Origin: Escherichia phage UPWr_E1
DNA length: 64,000 nucleotides
Sequence record: PP418985.1
Direction: 5' to 3' (one strand)
Shown one piece after another: positions 37,399-54,365 of this stretch; positions within the stretch are counted from its first letter, which is position 1, and each line of letters begins with the position of its first letter. Under the pieces are notes generated by a model. It had not been told where the DNA came from and did not search any database. It saw only the letters and a program-made list of their open reading frames with translations. A program made the position numbers and the translations under genes.

Positions 37399-38367
37399 AT
37401 GTTTAAACGCCAAGATTCTTCCAAACTGCAAGCTCAACTGGCCGCACTGAAAGGTGGCAACGGTTTCTCCAAAGAAGATCCGAAAGAGTGGAAGATTAAG
37501 ACTGATGCAGCAGGTAACGGTGAAGCCCTGATTCGCTTCCTGCCGTCTAAAACAGAAGACGGTCTGCCGATTGTGAAACTGGTAAACCATTCCTTCAAAG
37601 TTAATGGTAAATGGTATTGGGAAAACTGCTCAAGCACCCACGGTGATTTTGATTCTTGCCCTGTGTGCAAATATATTAACGAAAAAGATCTGTACAATAC
37701 CGATAAAACCGAATGGCAACTGATTAAGCGTAAGGCATCTTACTACGCAAATATTCTGGTACTGAAAGATCCTCAAGCACCGGAAAATGAAGGTAAAGTA
37801 TTCAAATTCCGCTTCGGTCAGAAAATTTATGATAAGATCGTTGCGATGGTGAACGTGAATACCGATATGGGCGAAGTTCCGGTCGATGTAACTTGTGTGT
37901 TCTCCGGTGCTAACTTCCTCCTGAAAGCTAAGAAGGTTGATAAACACCAGAACTATGATGATTCTCGTTTCATGCAGCAATCACAGCTTCCGAAAATTGA
38001 AGACGAAGCATATCAGAAATATCTGATGGAAAACATGGTTGATCTGGGCGAGATTGTAGCGCCTAGCCAGTTTAAACCGTTCGATGAACTGGAAACCAAA
38101 TTTAAGAAAACTATGGGCGTTTCTATGGTAGCTGGTGCTGCGGCTTCCAGTGCTGCGGCAGCGATTAACAGCCAGCTTGACGATTTTGACGCTGCTTTAA
38201 ATGCATTCGATTCTGGTATTACCGCAGCTAGCACTGTAGTTGGTATTAACGCAGCTAACACGGCGTCAGATTCTTCCGCTGATGATCTGATGGCATCTCT
38301 GGACCTGGGTGGCGGTACTTCCTCCGCTTCTGATCTGGATGACCTGGACTCTCTGTTAGCGATGTAA
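37399..38367 (+). CDS. 32: Single-stranded DNA-binding protein (gp32-like)
   Basis: Start set to ATG (MFKRQD) six codons after the track GTG; [30 protein letters not shown] zinc site, acidic C-terminus; own promoter and terminator. Confidence 0.9.
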
Positions 38368-38378
38368 TGAATTTTACA

Positions 38379-38402
38379 GCCTCCCTTCGGGGAGGCTTTT
38401 TT
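38379..38402 (+). terminator. Rho-independent terminator after gene 32
   Basis: GCCTCCC-TTCG-GGGAGGC followed by TTTTTTATT. Confidence 0.8.
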
Positions 38403-38429
38403 ATTGCCTAAAAATTTATGAAAAAGGTG

Positions 38430-38457
38430 TTGACATGTTGGCGAGGTAATGTATAAT
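38430..38457 (+). promoter_or_regulatory. Sigma70-type early promoter
   Basis: TTGACA-16-TATAAT after the gene 32 terminator. Confidence 0.6.
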
Positions 38458-38486
38458 GAACTCATCGAAACAACGGAGGATTAACA

Positions 38487-38816
38487 ATGTTTTTGAATGC
38501 TACCCTTTCCCAGAAAAGTGATAAAATCGAACTTCTGTATGTCATTGCTGATGTAGACGTACAACGAAGAAATATAGATTTAAAAATTCACAAATATTAT
38601 ACTATGAGCGAATATCACGAAATCGAGATCCCACATAGTGTGTATCCCGCATTATTGTTAGGAAAAGGAAATCTAAGTGAATATTCTTTGAAAGTCATCA
38701 AAGATTCTAAATCAATGCTTGCTCATATGGAAAAAGATTTTCTTGATGAAGTTTCCGCGCTAGTTATCAAACTGAAAGAAGAAACAGCACCGCTTTTCAT
38801 GGAACAAAAAGGTTGA
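38487..38816 (+). CDS. Hypothetical protein
   Basis: 109 aa; promoter 38430-38457 upstream. Confidence 0.45.
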   Translation: MFLNATLSQKSDKIELLYVIADVDVQRRNIDLKIHKYYTMSEYHEIEIPHSVYPALLLGKGNLSEYSLKVIKDSKSMLAHMEKDFLDEVSALVIKLKEETAPLFMEQKG

Positions 38817-38840
38817 CACCGAATACAGATGATGTATAAT
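38813..38840 (+). promoter_or_regulatory. Sigma70-type early promoter
   Basis: TTGACA-16-TATAAT with conserved CATCGAAAC leader. Confidence 0.6.
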
Positions 38841-38871
38841 ACAAACATCGAAACAAAGAGAGGATTATATT

Positions 38872-39201
38872 ATGTGGACTGTAGAACAAATCGTAGATGG
38901 AACAGTAAGTATTATCTCGTGTGGCACTATTGAAGAATGCCTTAAAGCCGCTAACCGTGAATGTATTACGGTTTATGAAGCCCGTCGCGGTGATGGTACT
39001 GTGTTAACCAGCGACTATCGATATGAACCAAAAATGATTACCTTTCGTTTCTGGGAAAATGGTGTTAATGTTGGGGTATCTCACTTAAAACGTTTTCGTG
39101 ATTATTCTGACCGTTATTTCATCACACCGGATAACGGTCAAGAATTTAAGACAGCAATCACCGAAGAAAATGTAAACGAAAACTTCTTTAAACTGATTTG
39201 A
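38872..39201 (+). CDS. Hypothetical protein
   Basis: 109 aa; promoter 38813-38840 upstream. Confidence 0.45.
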   Translation: MWTVEQIVDGTVSIISCGTIEECLKAANRECITVYEARRGDGTVLTSDYRYEPKMITFRFWENGVNVGVSHLKRFRDYSDRYFITPDNGQEFKTAITEENVNENFFKLI

Positions 39202-39215
39202 CAGGAGATTATATT

Positions 39216-39797
39216 ATGATTCAATGTGTATTTGCGATTGGTAACACTAAAATGTCGGATGAAAATTGGGCGTTTGGTTTTAAAGGCGGTTTACCGTGGG
39301 GTCGTCCAATCAAAAAAGATATGGAAAACTTTAAAATCCGCACCATTGGTGAGGTTGATTTTGCTGCGGTAGTAATGGGACGTAATACCTTTGAAAGTCT
39401 GCCTAAAGCACTTTGGGGACGTTTGAATGTGGTTGTTAGTACCGATACCAGCAAGCCAGAACCGAAAACAAAAAACGGCGACCAACCCGATGTGTATACC
39501 GCAATTACTAATGATGATGAATTAAAGGATCTGTTAAAAGTCCTGGAGAAAACGCAAGGTTTGGTAAGTGTTATCGGTGGACCTTCCCTGATTGAAAAAG
39601 CGGTTGACTTTGCGGACCGTATTGTGTTAACGTATGTTCAACGTTCAGGAATCAACGATCCATTTGAATATGATGTTGGTATCTCTAAGGAAATGATTCA
39701 TGAATTATATTTTGACTTTGCAACAAAAGAAGAACATAATTACTTCCTTGATAATTACCTGATCAGCGAACAAATTTTAGAACGTAAGAAGGCGTAA
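39216..39797 (+). CDS. frd: Dihydrofolate reductase
   Basis: Start moved to ATG after SD AGGAG; GGLPWGRPIKKD and VIGGPSL DHFR motifs. Confidence 0.85.
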   Translation: MIQCVFAIGNTKMSDENWAFGFKGGLPWGRPIKKDMENFKIRTIGEVDFAAVVMGRNTFESLPKALWGRLNVVVSTDTSKPEPKTKNGDQPDVYTAITNDDELKDLLKVLEKTQGLVSVIGGPSLIEKAVDFADRIVLTYVQRSGINDPFEYDVGISKEMIHELYFDFATKEEHNYFLDNYLISEQILERKKA

Positions 39798-39798
39798 C

Positions 39799-39891
39799 AT
39801 GAAAATTCTGACAGATTATGAGTGCAAACATTGTGGTGAATCTTTGATGTTTGCTGGTAGTCGGTGTTTACATTGTGGACGGGAACAATAA
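39799..39891 (+). CDS. Zinc-ribbon miniprotein
   Basis: 30-aa ORF read by hand, CKHCG...CLHCG; low confidence because of size. Confidence 0.25.
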   Translation: MKILTDYECKHCGESLMFAGSRCLHCGREQ

Positions 39892-40160
39892 TGAAAATAA
39901 CCATTATTCAATTATGGTCAGCTACCAGTGAAAACTACGCAGTAGCCGTAGATTATTACGGTTTACAATATCTCTATGATGAAGCTAAAGCGTCATGGCT
40001 TCCAGTACAGGAAAATAGCGACATTTCAAGACCTGTCACTGTATTCGACCCGGGCGTTGTCTTTATCGATATTGACGAGACAGTAGCAAAACTGCGTAAG
40101 AAAGCAATCAACAAGAAAAAGGTGAAGTGGGATGAAAGAATATTTGAAACTGTTGCGTGA
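39891..40160 (+). CDS. Hypothetical protein
   Basis: Start moved to ATG (MKITIIQ). Confidence 0.4.
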   Translation: MKITIIQLWSATSENYAVAVDYYGLQYLYDEAKASWLPVQENSDISRPVTVFDPGVVFIDIDETVAKLRKKAINKKKVKWDERIFETVA

Positions 40161-41364
40161 TGTTCTTGATAATGGCTGGCCTCGTGAAGACCGAACGGGT
40201 GTAGGTACGCTCTCTAAATTCGGCGCAGAGATGCGAATCGATTTAAGCAAGGGTTTCCCCTTACTGACCACTAAAAAGATGGCTACAGCCTCTGTAATTG
40301 GCGAGTTGCTATGGTTTATGGAAGGGTCACTTGACCGCCGTCGCTTACAGGAAATTACACGCGGTAAGTTTGACGAAGAAGCCTTTGATATTTGGCGCGG
40401 TAACTGTCTTGATATGAAAGAAAAGAATCCTTTGCGATTCAATGGTTATAATGTCGGCAATATGTATGGTATGGCATGGCGACGCAAACCGATTCATCCA
40501 CACGGGGAAGTCAAAATTAAGCGCGTTAAAAGCAAATACACGCATACATTTAAGCACCCGTGGGTAGAAGACTTTACGCCAACCAATGACACAGAAGACC
40601 GTTTATGTGCTATCTGGCGTGGTATGCGTTATGAAGAGTTTGATTCTGAATATAATCTATTCTTAGTAGCAGACCACTGGAAGACTCAATCTAATTTTGT
40701 TAATGATGCATATTGCTTGTGGGGATTCCAGGAATGGGTAGATGATGGTTATTTCGGTTATCTGCTTGATAGTGATTATCTGGGTGGGGATATGTTCGCA
40801 CCGGATACCACGATCTTTGTTAGTATGGACGTAGACACATCAAGCCATAAAGACGATGAAGAATATGTCTATCGCCCGAAGATTTGGGAAGACCAGTTAC
40901 AAAACGTGATTGAACAAATTAAAAACAATCCAACGGATCGCCGGATCATTATTGACTCATGGAACGTACAAGGAACACATAATGCTGTATTGGGTGTATG
41001 TCATCCGTTCGTACAATTCTACGTCAATGAAGGTAAACTGTCTTGTATGTGGTTTCAGCGAAGCGTAGACAGCTTTTTGGGCTTGCCCTTTAACGTCGCC
41101 AGCTATGCGCTGTTAACTCACATCATAGCGAAAATGTGTGATCTTGAGGTAGGAGAACTGATTTTCTCTGGTGGAGATACTCACATTTACAAAAACCATT
41201 TTGATCAAGTTACGGAACAGTTAAGCCGTGTTCCTTTTGATAAACCAACAATTGAGTTGCCGGAATTTAAATCTTTAGATGAGGTATTGACAAAGACTCC
41301 GAAAGACTTTAAAATTCACAACTATCAAAGCCATCCAGCAATCACCGCTCAAATGGCAGTATAA
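40132..41364 (+). CDS. td: Thymidylate synthase (ThyA family) with a large internal insertion
   Basis: 410 aa; ThyA blocks DRTGVGT, GELLWF, NPTDRRIIIDSWNV, CHPFVQFYV, QRSVDSFLGLPFN, GGDTHIY; about 125 extra residues between HPHGEV and DQLQNV. Confidence 0.85.
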   Translation: MKEYLKLLRDVLDNGWPREDRTGVGTLSKFGAEMRIDLSKGFPLLTTKKMATASVIGELLWFMEGSLDRRRLQEITRGKFDEEAFDIWRGNCLDMKEKNPLRFNGYNVGNMYGMAWRRKPIHPHGEVKIKRVKSKYTHTFKHPWVEDFTPTNDTEDRLCAIWRGMRYEEFDSEYNLFLVADHWKTQSNFVNDAYCLWGFQEWVDDGYFGYLLDSDYLGGDMFAPDTTIFVSMDVDTSSHKDDEEYVYRPKIWEDQLQNVIEQIKNNPTDRRIIIDSWNVQGTHNAVLGVCHPFVQFYVNEGKLSCMWFQRSVDSFLGLPFNVASYALLTHIIAKMCDLEVGELIFSGGDTHIYKNHFDQVTEQLSRVPFDKPTIELPEFKSLDEVLTKTPKDFKIHNYQSHPAITAQMAV

Positions 41365-41433
41365 ACAAAGGGGGTCGAAAGCCCCCAATATGGAGGATAA
41401 ACTTGTTCCTGCTAAAATATGAAGTGAGGTAAT

Positions 41434-43677
41434 ATGATTAAAAATGTTGTTAAGTCTTCCGGTCTGACTGTTCCGTTTGAAAAAGAAAAAGTAATGAAAA
41501 TTCTGGAAGCGGCAGCCGAAGGTCATAACGTTGATCCATATGAATTGTTTGATATGGTTGAACCACTTCTGACAGAAGGTATGTCTACCAATGATATCCA
41601 GAAAGTATTGATTAAGGTCGCCGCAGATAACATTACTGTAGAAACACCTGATTATCAATATGTAGCAAGTAACCTTGCAATGTTCGCGCTTCGTAAATCA
41701 GTATACGGTCAATTCCAACCTATTGATTTTTATAGCCATATTGAGCGTAATATTGCAACCGGAAAATATGATCGCGAAATTCTGCAAAAGTATTCCCGTG
41801 AAGAAGTGGAATATCTGGAGAAATTCATTGATCATAAACTTGATTTTAAAATGACCTATGCTGGTGCGATGCAGTTAAAAGAGAAATATCTTGTTCAGGA
41901 TCGCAGCACTAAGAAAATCATTGAAACACCGCAATTTGCGTATATGTTGATCGGTATGTGCTTACATCAAGAAGAGACAGAAAATCGACTTGAACATGTG
42001 ATTGATTTTTATAATGCTGTTGCGAATAAGCAAATCTCTCTGCCTACTCCGATTATGGCGGGTGTGCGTACTCCAACACGACAATTTAGTTCGTGTGTGG
42101 TGATCGAATCTGATGATTCATTGCAGGGTATTAATGAAACCGCAAATGCAATCATCAAGTATATTAGCAAGCGTGCTGGTATCGGTATCAACGCTGGCAT
42201 GATTCGCGCGGAAGGATCTAAGATCGGGCATGGTGAAGTTCGTCATACTGGCGTTATCCCATTCTGGAAACATTTTCAGACTGCCGTTAAGTCATGCTCA
42301 CAAGGCGGTATTCGTGGCGGGGCGGCGACTCTCTATTACCCAATGTGGCATTTAGAATTTGAAAGTCTTATTGTGTTGAAGAATAACAAAGGGGTAGAAG
42401 ACAACCGCATTCGCCATCTTGATTACGGCGTACAGATTAATAACCTGATGGTAGAGCGATTCCTTAAACGGGATTACATTACTCTGTTTAGTCCAGATGT
42501 TGCGGGTGGCTTGTTGTGGGATCTGTACTTCCGAGATGAGGAAGGTTTCCGCCAGCTTTACGAAAAACTGGAAAAAGATCCGAGTGTTCGTAAAACTCGT
42601 GTTAAAGCCGAAGACCTGTTTTTAGCGGTGGCAATTGAACGTTTTAACACTGGTCGAATCTATCCAGCGTTCACAGACAACATGAACAATCACGGGGCGT
42701 TTATTCGCAATGTAGCACCGATTAAACAATCTAACCTGTGTTGCGAAATTGCACTGCCTACTAAACCAATGGGGCGTGATGATTCAGAGATCAGCCTATG
42801 TACTTTGGCAGCATATGTTTTAGGTAATTTCGATATCGAAAACATGGAAGAAGTAGAACGCATTGCTATGGTTATGGTGCGTGCACTTGACAACTTGTTA
42901 GATTACCAGGATTATCCCGTAGAACAAGCTCTGACAGCAAAAAAACGTCGCTCTCTGGGTGTTGGTGTGACTAACTTTGCATCATATCTGGCGGATAATT
43001 TCTTCACATATGAAGACGCCAACGAGTTTACGCATAAAACGTTTGAACGCTTGCAATATGCTCTGATTAAGGCTAGTGTGCAACTGGCTAAAGAGAAGGG
43101 TGCTTGCGAACTGATGCACGAAACACGTTATGGTCGCGGTGAACTGCCTATCGACTGGTACAAAAAGACAGTAGATGAACTGGTTGACCCGGTGTATGAG
43201 ATGGATTGGGAAGAACTGCGCGAAGACCTGAAAAAATATGGCATTCGTAACAGTACGCTTTCGGCGCTGATGCCTTGTGAGTCGTCTTCTCAGGTGTCTA
43301 ACAGCACAAACGGTATTGAACCGCCTCGCGGGATTGTATCGGTTAAAGGATCGAAAGAAGGGCAATTTAATCAGGTTATTCCGAACGTAGAGAATAATGC
43401 TGATGTTATTGACTTGCTTTGGACACTGATCAAGAAAGGTAACAAGCCTTATCTGACACTGGCAGCGATTATGCAGAAGTTTGTCGACCAGGCGATTAGT
43501 TCCAATACATCCTATGATCCAAGCACTTATAAGACTGGTAAAGTCGATATTGCTGATGTATTAGATGATATGTTATTTGCTCAATATTACGGCCTCAAGA
43601 CACTGTATTACGCTAACGTGCGTGATGGTGCTGATGGTACGGAAGACGCTAGCGAATGTTCATCTTGCAAACTGTAA
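41434..43677 (+). CDS. nrdA: Ribonucleotide reductase large subunit (class Ia NrdA)
   Basis: 747 aa; N-terminal ATP cone; catalytic-site NLC and C-terminal cysteine pair. Confidence 0.9.
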   Translation: MIKNVVKSSGLTVPFEKEKVMKILEAAAEGHNVDPYELFDMVEPLLTEGMSTNDIQKVLIKVAADNITVETPDYQYVASNLAMFALRKSVYGQFQPIDFYSHIERNIATGKYDREILQKYSREEVEYLEKFIDHKLDFKMTYAGAMQLKEKYLVQDRSTKKIIETPQFAYMLIGMCLHQEETENRLEHVIDFYNAVANKQISLPTPIMAGVRTPTRQFSSCVVIESDDSLQGINETANAIIKYISKRAGIGINAGMIRAEGSKIGHGEVRHTGVIPFWKHFQTAVKSCSQGGIRGGAATLYYPMWHLEFESLIVLKNNKGVEDNRIRHLDYGVQINNLMVERFLKRDYITLFSPDVAGGLLWDLYFRDEEGFRQLYEKLEKDPSVRKTRVKAEDLFLAVAIERFNTGRIYPAFTDNMNNHGAFIRNVAPIKQSNLCCEIALPTKPMGRDDSEISLCTLAAYVLGNFDIENMEEVERIAMVMVRALDNLLDYQDYPVEQALTAKKRRSLGVGVTNFASYLADNFFTYEDANEFTHKTFERLQYALIKASVQLAKEKGACELMHETRYGRGELPIDWYKKTVDELVDPVYEMDWEELREDLKKYGIRNSTLSALMPCESSSQVSNSTNGIEPPRGIVSVKGSKEGQFNQVIPNVENNADVIDLLWTLIKKGNKPYLTLAAIMQKFVDQAISSNTSYDPSTYKTGKVDIADVLDDMLFAQYYGLKTLYYANVRDGADGTEDASECSSCKL

Positions 43678-43686
43678 AAATAAGTG

Positions 43687-43715
43687 TTGACGCGGGGAGA
43701 AATCCCCGCTATAAT
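43687..43715 (+). promoter_or_regulatory. Sigma70-type early promoter with palindromic spacer
   Basis: TTGACG then CGGGGAGAAATCCCCGC then TATAAT. Confidence 0.6.
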
Positions 43716-43746
43716 ACAACCATCAAAAACAAGTGAGGATTTTATT

Positions 43747-43914
43747 ATGACCAAATTAAAATGTGTTGCTGTAGATTTTGAACTAGCCGATAGCTTTGTT
43801 GTCGGTGATGTATATGATGCTCGACATGATGGGACTTGCTACTACGTTGAGGATGAATACGGCGTAGAATGGGCTATTCTTCCTGATGATAAATGCTTTG
43901 AGGTTGTCGAATAA
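43747..43914 (+). CDS. Hypothetical small protein
   Basis: Start moved to ATG after promoter 43687-43715 and SD GTGAGGA. Confidence 0.4.
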   Translation: MTKLKCVAVDFELADSFVVGDVYDARHDGTCYYVEDEYGVEWAILPDDKCFEVVE

Positions 43915-44087
43915 TGGCTACTGTATGGTTATTGATTGCAATCAGCAATTCAATGTATAATTACGGAAATATGTCAAGCATTGAATTTGCAACAAAGCAG
44001 GATTGCGTTAAAGCTCGCGAGATTATCCGCGAAGACAATAAACGCTTTATGAATCTGTACTGTGTTGAAAAGCAGAAGGTGAACTAA
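43914..44087 (+). CDS. Small protein, tandem paralog A (hydrophobic N-terminus)
   Basis: 57-aa ORF read by hand: MATVWLLIAISNS...SIEF...C...F.NLYCVEK. Confidence 0.4.
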   Translation: MATVWLLIAISNSMYNYGNMSSIEFATKQDCVKAREIIREDNKRFMNLYCVEKQKVN

Positions 44088-51944: not shown

Positions 51945-52413
51945 AATTGATATCTATGCGGGTGGACCTTATCCATCGGGTGAATTGAGTAATTTCAATA
52001 AAAGACCATTCCGTCTATTTGGTTGCGATATTAACAGCACAGAAGGATTTTTACAGGGGCTAAGATTTAAGAACCCTCAGAGACAAAGAGAAATCTTTTT
52101 GATGCACGGTGGCAAAGCAAAAAGAACCGGAAGAACTGAAAAGATTGAGAATCACATGTTATATTTTCAGGGTCGCCAGATTCATCGAATGAGTGAGCAT
52201 TATTACAGACTGGTACATCTGGCATTTGTTACGATGGCACGGAATAACCCAGAATTTTGTAAAGCATTACTCGCTACAGGAAATAAGAAATTACGTCATA
52301 GTATAGGTGGAACTGATCCGTTAAAGACCATATTGACCGAATCGGAATTTTGTAGTATCCTCAATGATATTCGTGAACGTTTAACAAAACGAGGTGAAAA
52401 TGTCAATTCTTAA
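51934..52413 (+). CDS. NADAR (YbiA/DUF1768-like) domain protein
   Basis: 159 aa; GELSNFNKRPF...STEGFLQGLRFKN...GGKAKRTGR...MSEHY...LLATGNKKLRHS pattern of NADAR. Confidence 0.55.
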   Translation: MTSEIDIYAGGPYPSGELSNFNKRPFRLFGCDINSTEGFLQGLRFKNPQRQREIFLMHGGKAKRTGRTEKIENHMLYFQGRQIHRMSEHYYRLVHLAFVTMARNNPEFCKALLATGNKKLRHSIGGTDPLKTILTESEFCSILNDIRERLTKRGENVNS

Positions 52414-53896
52414 TATCATTAATCAGCTTGCAGCAACAGACAAAACATCTCTGAAAGAAAAGATTCTGAAAGAATCTGCAAGCAATGAAACACTGAAAGA
52501 ATGCTTTTATCTGGCATATTGCAAACAGGTTACGTTTGGCGTAAAGAAATACGATAAACCATCGCGTTATTCGTCTGTATTGTCTTTATCTGGTGCATTA
52601 CAGGTCTTTAAAAATAAACTTGCCACGCGTCAAGTAACTGGTAATGCAGCATTACAGCTAGTTACCGATACTCTGACTTGCTTGTCAGAAGATGATGCTA
52701 AAGTTGCAATGATGGTCCTGAATCGCGATCTAGAATGCGGTTGTTCCGCTACCACTGCAAACAAGGTATGGAAGAAACTGATCCCCCAGCAACCATGCCA
52801 CCTTGCATCGTCATATTCTGATAAGGCTATTGCTAATATCAAATATCCGGCATATGCACAACTTAAAAGTGATGGCGCTCGTGGTATGGCTGATATTGAC
52901 GGGGAAACATTAGCAATCTATACCCGTTCAGGTAATACCTATCAGGGACTTGATGATTTGTTTGCTGTTTTAGAGCGTCTACGAGGCCGTGGAATTGTTC
53001 TAGATGGCGAATTGGTATATATGCCTACCCTTTCGCAAACACCAGCGCAGAACTTCGTTGAAAGCGTTTATGATGGTACTCTGTCATGGATATTTGAAGA
53101 AGAGGAAATGCCATTAACGCCAGTAGCGGAAGCAGTAAAAGAATCCGTTGTTGCAGATCGTCAGACCGGAAATGGTATCCTCAACAAATCACTGAAAGGA
53201 ACTATTCCAAAAGAAGAAGCCCAATGTATTGTTTACACTGTCTGGGATGTTATCGACCGTGATGTGTATTACGGAAACGAGAAAGCAACGAAGCAATATA
53301 AAGATCGATTCGAAGAACTAAAACAGATTGTTGAAGAACTTAACGATCCTCGTGTGCAGATAATCGAAAATACTGTAGTTAACAATATCGATGAAGCTCG
53401 CGAAGTATATCATCGCTATGTAAACATGGGCTTAGAAGGTATTATCCTTAAAAATTTACATGGTGTATTTGAAGATCGTCGCAGTAAAGATCAGGTTAAA
53501 TTTAAAGAAGTGATTGACTTCGACGCGGAAATTGTTGATGTATATCCGCATAGTAAAGATCCTAATAAGGTAGGCGGTTTTACTGTCCGTAGCGCGTGCG
53601 GACGAATGATGACTAACACCGGATCGGGATTGACAGACACCACAACCGAAAAAGGTGATGATGGTATCGAACGTGTGATTCCGTTAGATCGTCGAAATGA
53701 ACTTGACCGAGAAATGTTATGGGCTGACCGTCATAACCTGATTGGAAAAGTCATCGAGATGACATGCAACGGGTATATCCGCAGCAAATCACGTAAAGAA
53801 GATGAACCGGAGTTCTCTTTATTTCTCCCGATCATCAAACGTATTCGCTACGACAAGACCACTGCAAATACAGTAAAAGAGGTATTCGATGTGTGA
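52394..53896 (+). CDS. 30: ATP-dependent DNA ligase (gp30-like)
   Basis: 500 aa; adenylation motif I QLKSDGARG (KxDGxR), motifs EGIILK and downstream OB region. Confidence 0.9.
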   Translation: MKMSILNIINQLAATDKTSLKEKILKESASNETLKECFYLAYCKQVTFGVKKYDKPSRYSSVLSLSGALQVFKNKLATRQVTGNAALQLVTDTLTCLSEDDAKVAMMVLNRDLECGCSATTANKVWKKLIPQQPCHLASSYSDKAIANIKYPAYAQLKSDGARGMADIDGETLAIYTRSGNTYQGLDDLFAVLERLRGRGIVLDGELVYMPTLSQTPAQNFVESVYDGTLSWIFEEEEMPLTPVAEAVKESVVADRQTGNGILNKSLKGTIPKEEAQCIVYTVWDVIDRDVYYGNEKATKQYKDRFEELKQIVEELNDPRVQIIENTVVNNIDEAREVYHRYVNMGLEGIILKNLHGVFEDRRSKDQVKFKEVIDFDAEIVDVYPHSKDPNKVGGFTVRSACGRMMTNTGSGLTDTTTEKGDDGIERVIPLDRRNELDREMLWADRHNLIGKVIEMTCNGYIRSKSRKEDEPEFSLFLPIIKRIRYDKTTANTVKEVFDV

Positions 53897-54365
53897 TAAT
53901 GAAGGGGCGAAAGCCCCTAAACCTAAAAAATTGTCAAAGAAAGAGCAACGCCAGATCCTGAAAATGAAATACGGTGGACGTTGTGCCTATTGTGGCGAGG
54001 AACTAGGGGATCGCTGGCACGCAGACCACATCAAACCAGTATTACGACGCTCAAAAGTAGTCTATGATGAAAATGGACGAATTGCCCGTAATGATGATGG
54101 ATCGTGGAAGTATAAGGTTGTAGGAATGCATAAACCGGAGCATGATATACTTGATAACATGAATCCGGCGTGTGTGCAATGCAATCTTTATAAAAGCTGT
54201 ATGGGCTTAGAATACTGGCGTAAGTGTATACGCGAGAACTTCCAGAAGTACATTCAGCGCAATATGGGATTGCGAGCGGCTAAACGCTTTGGCTTACTGT
54301 CAATCCACGATCAGCCAGTAGAATTTTATTTCGAAAAGTACGAGCGCGAGCATCAAGAAAAATAA
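53889..54365 (+). CDS. HNH endonuclease
   Basis: CAYCGEELGDRWHADHIKP ... NMNPACVQCN: HNH with zinc-binding cysteines; overlaps ligase stop. Confidence 0.7.
   Translation: MCDNEGAKAPKPKKLSKKEQRQILKMKYGGRCAYCGEELGDRWHADHIKPVLRRSKVVYDENGRIARNDDGSWKYKVVGMHKPEHDILDNMNPACVQCNLYKSCMGLEYWRKCIRENFQKYIQRNMGLRAAKRFGLLSIHDQPVEFYFEKYEREHQEK

Follow-up and report, generated by a model that had tools for sequence, protein, structure and literature searches.

We analyzed the thymidylate synthase gene (td, or thyA) in a 64,000-nucleotide (nt) stretch of DNA from Escherichia phage UPWr_E1 (record PP418985.1), referred to here as the window. The gene is the open reading frame (ORF) at 40132..41364 on the plus strand, which encodes 410 amino acids (aa) plus a stop codon (1233 nt). 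Its product matches the Pfam family PF00303 (Thymidylat_synt) at an E value of 6.9e-85, scoring 284.8 bits against a cutoff of 24.3 bits, and it belongs to ThyA according to the NCBIfam model thym_sym (TIGR03284; 284 bits, cutoff 108.35 bits). The source phage is an RB49-like coliphage of the genus Krischvirus; its td is 97.6% identical to RB49 td at the nucleotide level, and the td ORF is present in 58 phage records, all of them Krischvirus. An initial annotation, made from the letters alone, had described the 410-aa protein as a ThyA with all of its catalytic blocks present and collinear but with about 125 extra residues, rich in aromatic and acidic amino acids, at 40513-40887. Our results agree with that description and add an origin for the extra residues, which probably descend from an in-frame homing-endonuclease-like element that has since been truncated and has decayed.

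Both parts of the enzyme align with Escherichia coli ThyA: in a phmmer comparison, residues 1-82 pair with the same residues of the E. coli enzyme, whereas residues 254-410 pair with its residues 110-264, and the PF00303 match likewise falls in two stretches. The N-terminal core (residues 1-120; 40132..40491, plus strand), which a multiple sequence alignment follows on to the WR motif, ends with the motif YGMAWRRKP, and the C-terminal core comprises residues 254-410 (40891..41361, plus strand). In an alignment of 30 long and short ThyAs, R21, E58, W88, Y112, R270/R271, C290, H291, R310, S311, D313, N321, H351, and Y353 are invariant or nearly so; the codon of the invariant catalytic Cys290 lies at 40999-41001 (plus strand). 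We take these to be catalytic or substrate-binding residues of ThyA, presumably the counterparts of R21, E58, W80, Y94, R126/R127, C146, R166, S167, D169, N177, H207, and Y209 in E. coli. The presence of Asn rather than Asp at position 321 fits dUMP rather than dCMP as the substrate. Because the catalytic residues are intact and the core is under strong purifying selection (reported below), the protein is predicted to have thymidylate synthase activity with the insert in place. The label "thymidylate synthase" in RB49-type records is correct, yet it conceals a second domain.

The insert lies between the YGxxWR motif and the DQL helix and covers residues ~121-253 (nt 40492-40890). The interval 40513-40887 corresponds to residues 128-252 (KIKRVK...RPKIW), exactly 125 aa. 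Over residues 113-262, the multiple sequence alignment contains 150 aa in this protein, compared with 24 in E. coli and 19 to 25 in insert-free phage ThyAs, which indicates a single block of about 126 additional residues rather than scattered indels. Upstream, a further ~18 extra residues (GNCLDMKEKNPLRFNGYNVG) form an ordinary phage-type ThyA extension that is shared with insert-free phage enzymes. Aromatic residues account for 19.2% of the insert and 10.2% of the rest of the protein, and acidic residues for 19.2% and 13.0%, respectively; the net charge is -11 for the insert and -2 for the rest. Alignments and the structure model described below divide the insert into three parts, all on the plus strand: an N-terminal arm (residues 121-156, IHPHGEVKIKRVKS...TEDR; 40492..40599) with a beta strand at 126-130, a central part (residues 157-234; 40600..40833), and a C-terminal arm (residues 235-253, ...EEYVYRPKIWE; 40834..40890) with a returning beta strand at 245-249.

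Several lines of evidence show that the insert is translated and stays in the protein. The insert frame is free of stop codons, and the remaining five frames hold 4 to 18 stops each. The sole length change among nine Krischvirus td alleles is a 12-nt in-frame indel of the SEYN codons (40645..40656, plus strand), and the insert match found by tblastn is 363 or 375 nt long, depending on the record. The ratio of nonsynonymous to synonymous polymorphism (pN/pS), summed over allele pairs, comes to 0.25 for the insert and to 0.042 and 0.030 for the N-terminal and C-terminal cores, respectively; the insert is thus protein-coding and under purifying selection 6 to 8 times weaker than that on the enzyme core. 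An AlphaFold2 (AF2) model of the whole 410-aa protein, built with 30 aligned relatives, had a mean predicted local distance difference test score (pLDDT) of 92.9 and a predicted template modeling score (pTM) of 0.91. DSSP assigned strands in the insert of this model at residues 126-130, 210-213, 228-231, and 245-249, with a further strand at 118-120, and the insert helices lie at residues 153-169, 181-193, and 199-204.

We also looked for signs that the segment is removed. A scan of 38000-44000 against Rfam at E<=1 gave a single weak and unrelated small RNA match and no intron, and the RNA fold of the segment is no better than that of shuffled sequence (minimum free energy z = -1.37). The only Pfam domain detected in the protein at E<=1 was Thymidylat_synt, with no Hint or other intein domain, and nothing was detected for the insert by itself. 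The HN[CST] intein junction motif is absent from the entire 410-aa protein; HN dipeptides occur only at residues 283 and 396, both beyond the insert. A group I or group II intron was rejected, given the lack of a ribozyme match, the unremarkable RNA fold, and the protein-coding constraint on the segment, and an intein was rejected for want of both a Hint domain and junction residues. A hidden out-of-frame endonuclease ORF, such as the one in the ShiLan domain (discussed below), was rejected as well: no alternative-frame ORF of at least 40 aa lies within the insert proper, those of at least that length (40442-40567, plus strand; 40345-40557, minus strand; 40910-41068, plus strand) sit near the insert edges, and every other frame is closed by its 4 to 18 stops. 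Taken together, the open frame, the in-frame indel, the pN/pS of 0.25, the AF2 fold, and the absence of intron or intein features show that the insert is a translated, folded domain retained in the protein, and that there is no intron or intein to remove it. This bears out the proposal of the initial annotation that the segment, with its open frame and no intein termini, is a translated inserted domain: the alignment revealed one block, structure prediction yielded a folded insert, and td of other phages carried the insert in 58 of 58 Krischvirus records.

Beyond Krischvirus, tblastn with the 125 residues detected relatives in UE-S1 (Asteriusvirus), phiKp_21 (Alcyoneusvirus), and Vibrio phage D69, with E values of 1e-11 and 4e-12 to the jumbo-phage ThyA inserts. 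These relatives are annotated as "thymidylate synthase" in the jumbo phage UE-S1 (517 aa), "hypothetical protein" in the Klebsiella phage phiKp_21 (517 aa), and "HNH endonuclease" in D69 (477 aa; CAL9965137.1, L003:2410-3843). Each of them is a ThyA-family protein whose insert, in the same position, is larger. The D69 protein, despite its name, matches Pfam Thymidylat_synt at 1.9e-47. Its ThyA core is divergent (39% identical to that of the window, with, for instance, RSG for RTG and DPL for DQL), and the protein may be something other than a standard dTMP synthase. The larger inserts match PHROG "HNH endonuclease" families at 3.9e-32, 3.4e-25, and 6.8e-21, whereas a direct scan of the window insert against the same families (2081, 953, and 374) gave merely 0.076 and 0.16.

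A database search with the full protein recovered 26 long ThyAs (401 to 613 aa), all with an insert at the window site. The inserts fall into three size classes of ~235-275, ~185, and ~125-135 extra residues, and that of the window belongs to the last. A full-size element consists of an N-terminal beta module of ~65 aa, a central module of ~90 aa, and a C-terminal module of ~50 aa. The central module has the signature YxxWxxMxxRCY ... VCxxWxxFxNFxxD ... LDKD ... YSPxTCxF ... N, and the C-terminal module in the relatives is an I-HmuI-type NUMOD-like domain (Pfam PF22083). We compared residues 157-234 with a profile of the central module built from 40 sequences, with short inserts excluded, and hhalign aligned 77 columns at 98.1% probability and an E value of 9.7e-14; against a profile of free-standing proteins alone, the values were 96% and 4.5e-9. 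These profile matches firmly support homology between residues 157-234 and the central "LDKD" module. Pfam and NCBIfam scans of the window insert, the full-size inserts, and the free-standing relatives returned no domain for the central module, and a profile of the insert alignment had no match at E<=10 among Protein Data Bank (PDB) sequences.

The module belongs to a large phage family. A tblastn search with a full-size insert matched 2069 places in 1474 phage records, most of them free-standing ORFs labeled as hypothetical or as an HNH endonuclease, a DNA-binding protein, or an AP2 protein. When 1.84 billion representative proteins were searched with a profile, 54,110 clusters matched at E<=1e-3, and 10,754 did so at E<=1e-10. 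The best 145 representatives included 19 with the I-HmuI NUMOD-like domain, 12 ThyAs, 3 with AP2, 2 with NUMOD1, and 1 C5 DNA methylase, and none of the 145 had a recognized nuclease domain. The methylase is a C-5 cytosine enzyme (PF00145, 1e-09), and its domain content suggests that the module may also be embedded in or fused to enzymes other than ThyA. Free-standing members are typically 170 to 300 aa long and consist of the beta module, the central module, and an AP2 or NUMOD-like tail. One lies between nrdA and nrdB in Salmonella phage UAB_1 and another immediately downstream of the DNA polymerase gene of Vibrio phage ICP1, both of which are classic niches of homing endonuclease genes. Four free-standing members (P0130, P0131, P0137, and P0141) have two tandem copies of the beta and central modules in one polypeptide, an arrangement that would suit a pseudo-dimeric nuclease.

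The LDKD motif is found in 27 of 27 free-standing proteins (once as LDKE), [L/I]DKD in 17 of 17 full-size or mid-size ThyA inserts, and the signature D-K-D...Y-S-P-x-T-C...N is kept in all 44 longer or free-standing copies that we aligned. The canonical HNH histidine is absent at the motif position both from the family, which has D-K-D, and from the window, which has D-S-D, and there was no Pfam HNH match. A structure model of the phiKp_21 insert (pLDDT 91.3) found only noise and no solved-structure match when compared with the PDB by Foldseek; against predicted viral proteins there were 51 matches, a few of them named homing endonucleases and one a 564-aa ThyA. We infer that the module is the catalytic domain of an uncharacterized family of bba-Me-like homing endonucleases without the histidine, and that the "LDKD" family would have nuclease activity; the leading alternative is a module that serves in DNA binding alone.

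Inserts of this kind are distributed sporadically across thyA genes. A match to the module scored in the gap between the ThyA halves in 67 of the 68 ThyA-family proteins of at least 380 aa that we examined. Most inserts are at the window site, which we call site A (E. coli ~101-109, between WR and DQL), and about ten are at site B (E. coli ~84-88, between IWDEW and GDLGPVY). Site-B ThyAs include P0165, P0169, P0174, P0177, P0181, P0189, P0191, P0193, and P0197. The 50-residue insert of Lactobacillus casei ThyA presumably lies at about site B, before DLGPVYG, and not at site A. Site A is occupied in several ThyA backgrounds, namely the clade of the window and the jumbo phages, P0022, P0024, P0025, and the ThyA of Bacillus phage Kioshi (548 aa), which is 27 to 31% identical to other insert-bearing ThyAs. 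In a tree of the ThyA cores, P0024 and P0025 nest separately among insert-free phage ThyAs of 276 to 304 aa, and the P0024 core is 88 to 90% identical to the insert-free P0029 and P0060 but only 55 to 57% identical to the window and jumbo-phage enzymes. The insert-bearing P0025 and the insert-free P0029 are encoded on syntenic phage contigs (L031 and L034, respectively) that share the order AAA, DUF2201, DHFR, ThyA, epimerase, methyltransferase, and terminase. On a third contig, the insert-bearing L032, the thyA flanks are 89% and 76% identical in nucleotide sequence to those of the insert-free L034, compared with 68% and 77% to those of the insert-bearing L031. Such a sporadic and site-specific pattern is what homing produces, and these comparisons suggest that the "LDKD" family has colonized thyA repeatedly. 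Some insert-free phage ThyAs of 299 to 304 aa, including P0027, have ~23 extra residues (KYNEQQDFGPAHRGGRRLAVDKTE) exactly at the insertion site of the window; this segment may be a loop of unrelated origin or a final vestige of an element that was deleted.

The Krischvirus copy is reduced and degenerate. The window insert has neither the ~65-aa beta module, at the N-arm position, nor the ~50-aa NUMOD-like module, before the return strand of the C arm, and it keeps only two short arms and the central module. Within that module, the RCY loop is partly lost (GMRYEE stands for M..RCY), LDKD has become LDSD (40765..40776, plus strand), and YSPxTC has become FAPDTT, with Phe-Ala for Tyr-Ser and Thr for Cys. 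The conserved Asn has become Asp (MDVD), and the stretch that aligns with YSPxTCxF....N, APDTTIFVSMDVD (40798..40836, plus strand), retains its hydrophobic strand. LDKD, the Asn, and RCY are lost in 8 of 8 short inserts. The LDKD position reads LDSD, LDCD, LTQK, LSCD, LSCK, or LSLV among the window and its closest short-insert relatives, and such divergence among close relatives indicates that the signature is no longer selected in short inserts. The net charge of the central module is -13 in the window, compared with medians of +2 in larger ThyA inserts and +1 in free-standing proteins. What is still conserved in short inserts is the hydrophobic core, chiefly AYCLWGFQEWVD (40708..40743, plus strand) and APDTxIF; the former (xLWGFQExVD) is the best conserved stretch of ThyA-embedded inserts and is not conserved in free-standing relatives.

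Short forms arose twice in the core tree. One origin is the window clade (401 to 414 aa), which is sister to mid-size forms, and the other is the lineage of P0009 and P0013 (417 to 418 aa), nested among the 517-aa jumbo-phage enzymes; two origins suggest repeated reductive decay. In Krischvirus, the insert is fixed, and no empty allele was seen among the 58 records. The window copy is most likely an inactive relic that forms a structural appendage of a catalytically intact enzyme.

We therefore regard it as probable that the independently folded domain in this ThyA derives from a homing-endonuclease-like element that inserted in frame and that is now truncated, decayed, and inactive in Krischvirus, where it would be a structural appendage. 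What this adds to the initial annotation is the origin of the domain, which is a truncated and degenerate copy of a module that is widespread both as a free-standing protein and within thyA. Under this explanation, the ancestor would have been a three-part element (a small beta module, the "LDKD" module, and the I-HmuI-type NUMOD-like DNA-binding module) that inserted in frame into thyA, at the tip of a surface beta-hairpin corresponding to the E. coli 101-109 loop. It would have been an active, site-specific homing endonuclease, spreading by cutting insert-free thyA at the sequence for the YGxQWR and DQL motifs. The two arms (strands 118-130 and 245-254) are predicted to pair as a beta ribbon that prolongs the native 101-109 hairpin and holds the domain off the core; such a projection from the enzyme would account for the element needing neither RNA nor protein splicing. 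In Krischvirus, fixation would have been followed by loss of both flanking modules, decay of RCY, LDKD, and the Asn, and acquisition of an acidic surface. The remnant would no longer be a nuclease or a DNA binder, and the moderate constraint on it would reflect the need to fold inside an important enzyme, possibly together with a secondary role.

Some observations weigh against this explanation. The pN/pS of 0.25 and the strongly conserved LWGFQEWVD fit a retained or new function as well as they fit mere foldability. There is no co-conversion tract around the insert in L031, L032, and L034; the two insert-bearing alleles compared share just 59% nucleotide identity within the insert, as expected of old inserts, and no recent homing event was caught. 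The tree of ThyA cores is a distance-based neighbor-joining tree without support values, and where the insert probably sits with respect to the active site and the dimer interface is read from secondary structure alone.

We weighed five other explanations. The remnant might have been exapted, that is, kept for a present use such as a protein-protein contact surface or modulation of ThyA, with the T4-type complex that synthesizes deoxynucleoside triphosphates (dNTPs) or a host factor as the proposed partner. Exaptation agrees with our explanation on the origin of the insert and departs from it on present function. The pN/pS far below neutrality is in its favor, as are retention of the insert in all 58 Krischvirus records and, at ~60% identity, in P0003-P0006, the better conservation of AYCLWGFQEWVD in ThyA-embedded than in free-standing copies, and the directional charge shift to -13. 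The structure of T4 Td (PDB 1TIS) reportedly led to the proposal that surface inserts serve as contacts in the dNTP synthetase complex. Equal constraint, however, is expected of any domain that folds within an important enzyme. P0009 and P0013, which were shortened independently, remained basic (+3 and +6), which shows that an acidic shift is not a general outcome of shortening. On balance, we consider exaptation rather unlikely. At the opposite extreme, the window insert might still be an active homing endonuclease or nickase that works as a ThyA fusion. The fold of the central module is kept, and since ThyA is a dimer, two copies would be paired, but the insert lacks the signature residues, whose replacements differ among close relatives, it has lost both accessory DNA-binding modules, and its central module has a net charge of -13. 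Moreover, fixation of the insert in every Krischvirus record leaves no empty target allele within the genus. Continued nuclease activity of the window copy is thus very improbable.

Alternatively, the module may be a sequence-specific DNA- or RNA-binding domain rather than a nuclease, acquired by accretion or mobilized in trans, with the window copy again a decayed appendage. This is compatible with the absence of the canonical catalytic histidine and of a Pfam nuclease match from the family and with the label "DNA binding protein" on some GenBank relatives. In addition, the module spans only part of several PHROG profiles (23-194 of 433, 222-308 of 420, and 267-368 of 617), and in those long families the nuclease could reside elsewhere. 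Many free-standing members, on the other hand, are 170 to 260 aa long and have the beta and central modules with at most an AP2 or NUMOD-like domain, a size that leaves no space for a further catalytic domain. The invariance of D-K-D...N in the 44 nondegenerate copies is typical of a catalytic or metal-binding site, and we consider a pure binding function unlikely. Removal of the segment as an in-frame group I intron, an intein, or a translational bypass has a precedent of sorts in T4 td, which has a group I intron, thyA being a known target of intron endonucleases (PMC2988022). Here, removal is opposed by the lack of an Rfam intron, the RNA z score of -1.37, purifying selection at the codon level, the restriction of indels to in-frame changes, the absence of a Hint domain and of Cys/Ser...HN-Cys/Ser/Thr junctions, and a confident protein fold that packs on the enzyme in the AF2 model; we give it almost no credence. 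Equally hard to credit is the idea that the ThyA small domain simply expanded in this lineage, much as it did in L. casei, without any link to mobile elements. The ThyA region between helix 80-100 and helix 110 tolerates length variation, and the insert-free 299- to 304-aa ThyAs have their ~23 extra residues at the same spot. Such an expansion would not explain the significant profile homology to free-standing phage proteins (E 9.7e-14 and E 4.5e-9) or the presence of the module in unrelated ThyA backgrounds and at site B.

The explanation that we prefer, a decayed endonuclease-like element, can be carried further to the full-size relatives. These may be homing elements that are permanently in frame and "splice-free," each with its own beta-ribbon stalk, so that the fusion protein itself would cleave empty thyA; Td of Krischvirus would then be the end stage. 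The full-size carriers would be the Asteriusvirus and Alcyoneusvirus jumbo phages, Vibrio and Bacillus phages, and many metagenomic phages. The catalytic domain would be the very large, unmodeled, histidine-less bba-Me-like family, two ThyA hairpins would be permissive, and Krischvirus Td would have passed through fixation, truncation, and perhaps exaptation. We propose this extension tentatively and rate its chances as somewhat less than even.

The window contains other features near td and one further endonuclease gene. The td gene is flanked by frd (39198-39797) upstream and nrdA (41434-43677) downstream, in the order frd-td-nrdA that is annotated in the RB49 record. A 98-aa ORF at 39864-40160 (plus strand), which corresponds to the hypothetical protein RB49ORF236c, overlaps the td start codon (40132) by 29 nt; RB49ORF236c overlaps td likewise in RB49, and the shared overlap suggests translational coupling. 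In phage JSE, the C-terminal core of td is mosaic. Its synonymous divergence (dS) from the window is 0.89 over 40891-41361, whereas the N-terminal core and the insert have values of 0.22 and 0.13, respectively, and the jump to 0.89 indicates recombination with a different thyA allele 3' of the insert. The weak Rfam match mentioned above, at 38340-38408 (plus strand), is to the small RNA STnc100 and scores 22.8 bits (gathering score 47, E 0.077); it lies upstream of the frd cluster, where the sequence is locally GC-rich, and is most likely due to chance. No second copy of the module was detected by tblastn elsewhere in the 64-kb window. A weak match at 53474-53773 was rejected as such a copy, as it derives from the ThyA part of the whole-protein query and lies in a 500-aa ORF (52394-53896) that we take to encode DNA ligase. 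Directly after this ORF, with an 8-nt overlap, comes a 158-aa ORF (53889-54365, plus strand) with a classical HNH motif (CAYCGEEL...HADHIKP...NMNPACVQCN), which is probably a free-standing HNH endonuclease gene. Kinship between its product and the td insert was rejected (hhalign probability 0.3%).

Of the systems already described, the ShiLan domain is the closest published concept. It is an in-frame, nonsplicing insertion in an actinobacteriophage DNA methylase, with an HNH gene located out of frame (PMC11855218). The two cases are alike in their in-frame readthrough within a phage enzyme gene, the absence of intron or intein features, a sporadic, homing-like distribution, and a predicted protrusion from the enzyme. 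They differ in that the endonuclease-like module in td is in frame and is part of the enzyme, and also in host gene, module family, and state of decay. Inteins with HNH or LAGLIDADG domains similarly place an endonuclease-type domain in frame near the sequence for a conserved motif, with termini that are brought together; the td insert has neither the Hint domain nor the junction residues of an intein and stays in the mature protein. T4 td, with I-TevI, and Bacillus mojavensis thyA, with I-BmoI, have group I introns that are spliced from the RNA and that encode GIY-YIG enzymes. Those introns occupy a different position in the gene, and the insert described here has no ribozyme and is translated. 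What they have in common with it is invasion of the same host gene by endonuclease-type mobile DNA, and endonucleases encoded in introns are known to target thyA (PMC2988022).

The free-standing relatives of the module resemble the AP2 and NUMOD homing endonuclease genes (HNH-AP2, mobE, and I-HmuI-like genes) in their accessory domains and genomic niches. They differ from these genes in a central module that has no Pfam or NCBIfam model and no HNH histidine, and the window copy differs further in being embedded and degenerate. PacI (PDB 3M7K) is a bba-Me/HNH enzyme that lacks the canonical catalytic histidine; the match to it was weak, with a marginal score and 9% sequence identity. Finally, the 50-residue insert of L. 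casei ThyA and the surface inserts of T4 Td (PDB 1TIS) also add surface residues in the same general region of ThyA, but these inserts are shorter and are unrelated to the proteins of mobile elements. In the literature that we searched, the coverage of which was incomplete, neither the RB49-type Td insert nor endonuclease-like domains embedded in ThyA were described.

To our knowledge, homing endonuclease genes are thought to persist in essential genes only inside self-splicing introns or inteins. In the ThyAs examined here, an endonuclease-like module is simply translated within the enzyme. It occupies two permissive loops and occurs in dozens of phage lineages, in states that range from full size to relic. 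The thyA inserts thus constitute a natural decay series, with the RB49-like coliphages as a model group for the tolerated end product. This work also exposes a very large phage family, comprising tens of thousands of clusters, for which neither Pfam nor NCBIfam has a model and no structure has been solved. Its annotation is inconsistent, being "HNH endonuclease," "DNA binding protein," or "hypothetical" depending on the record. If our explanation is correct, in-frame translation within the host enzyme would be a third strategy, beside introns and inteins, by which endonuclease genes reside in essential genes.

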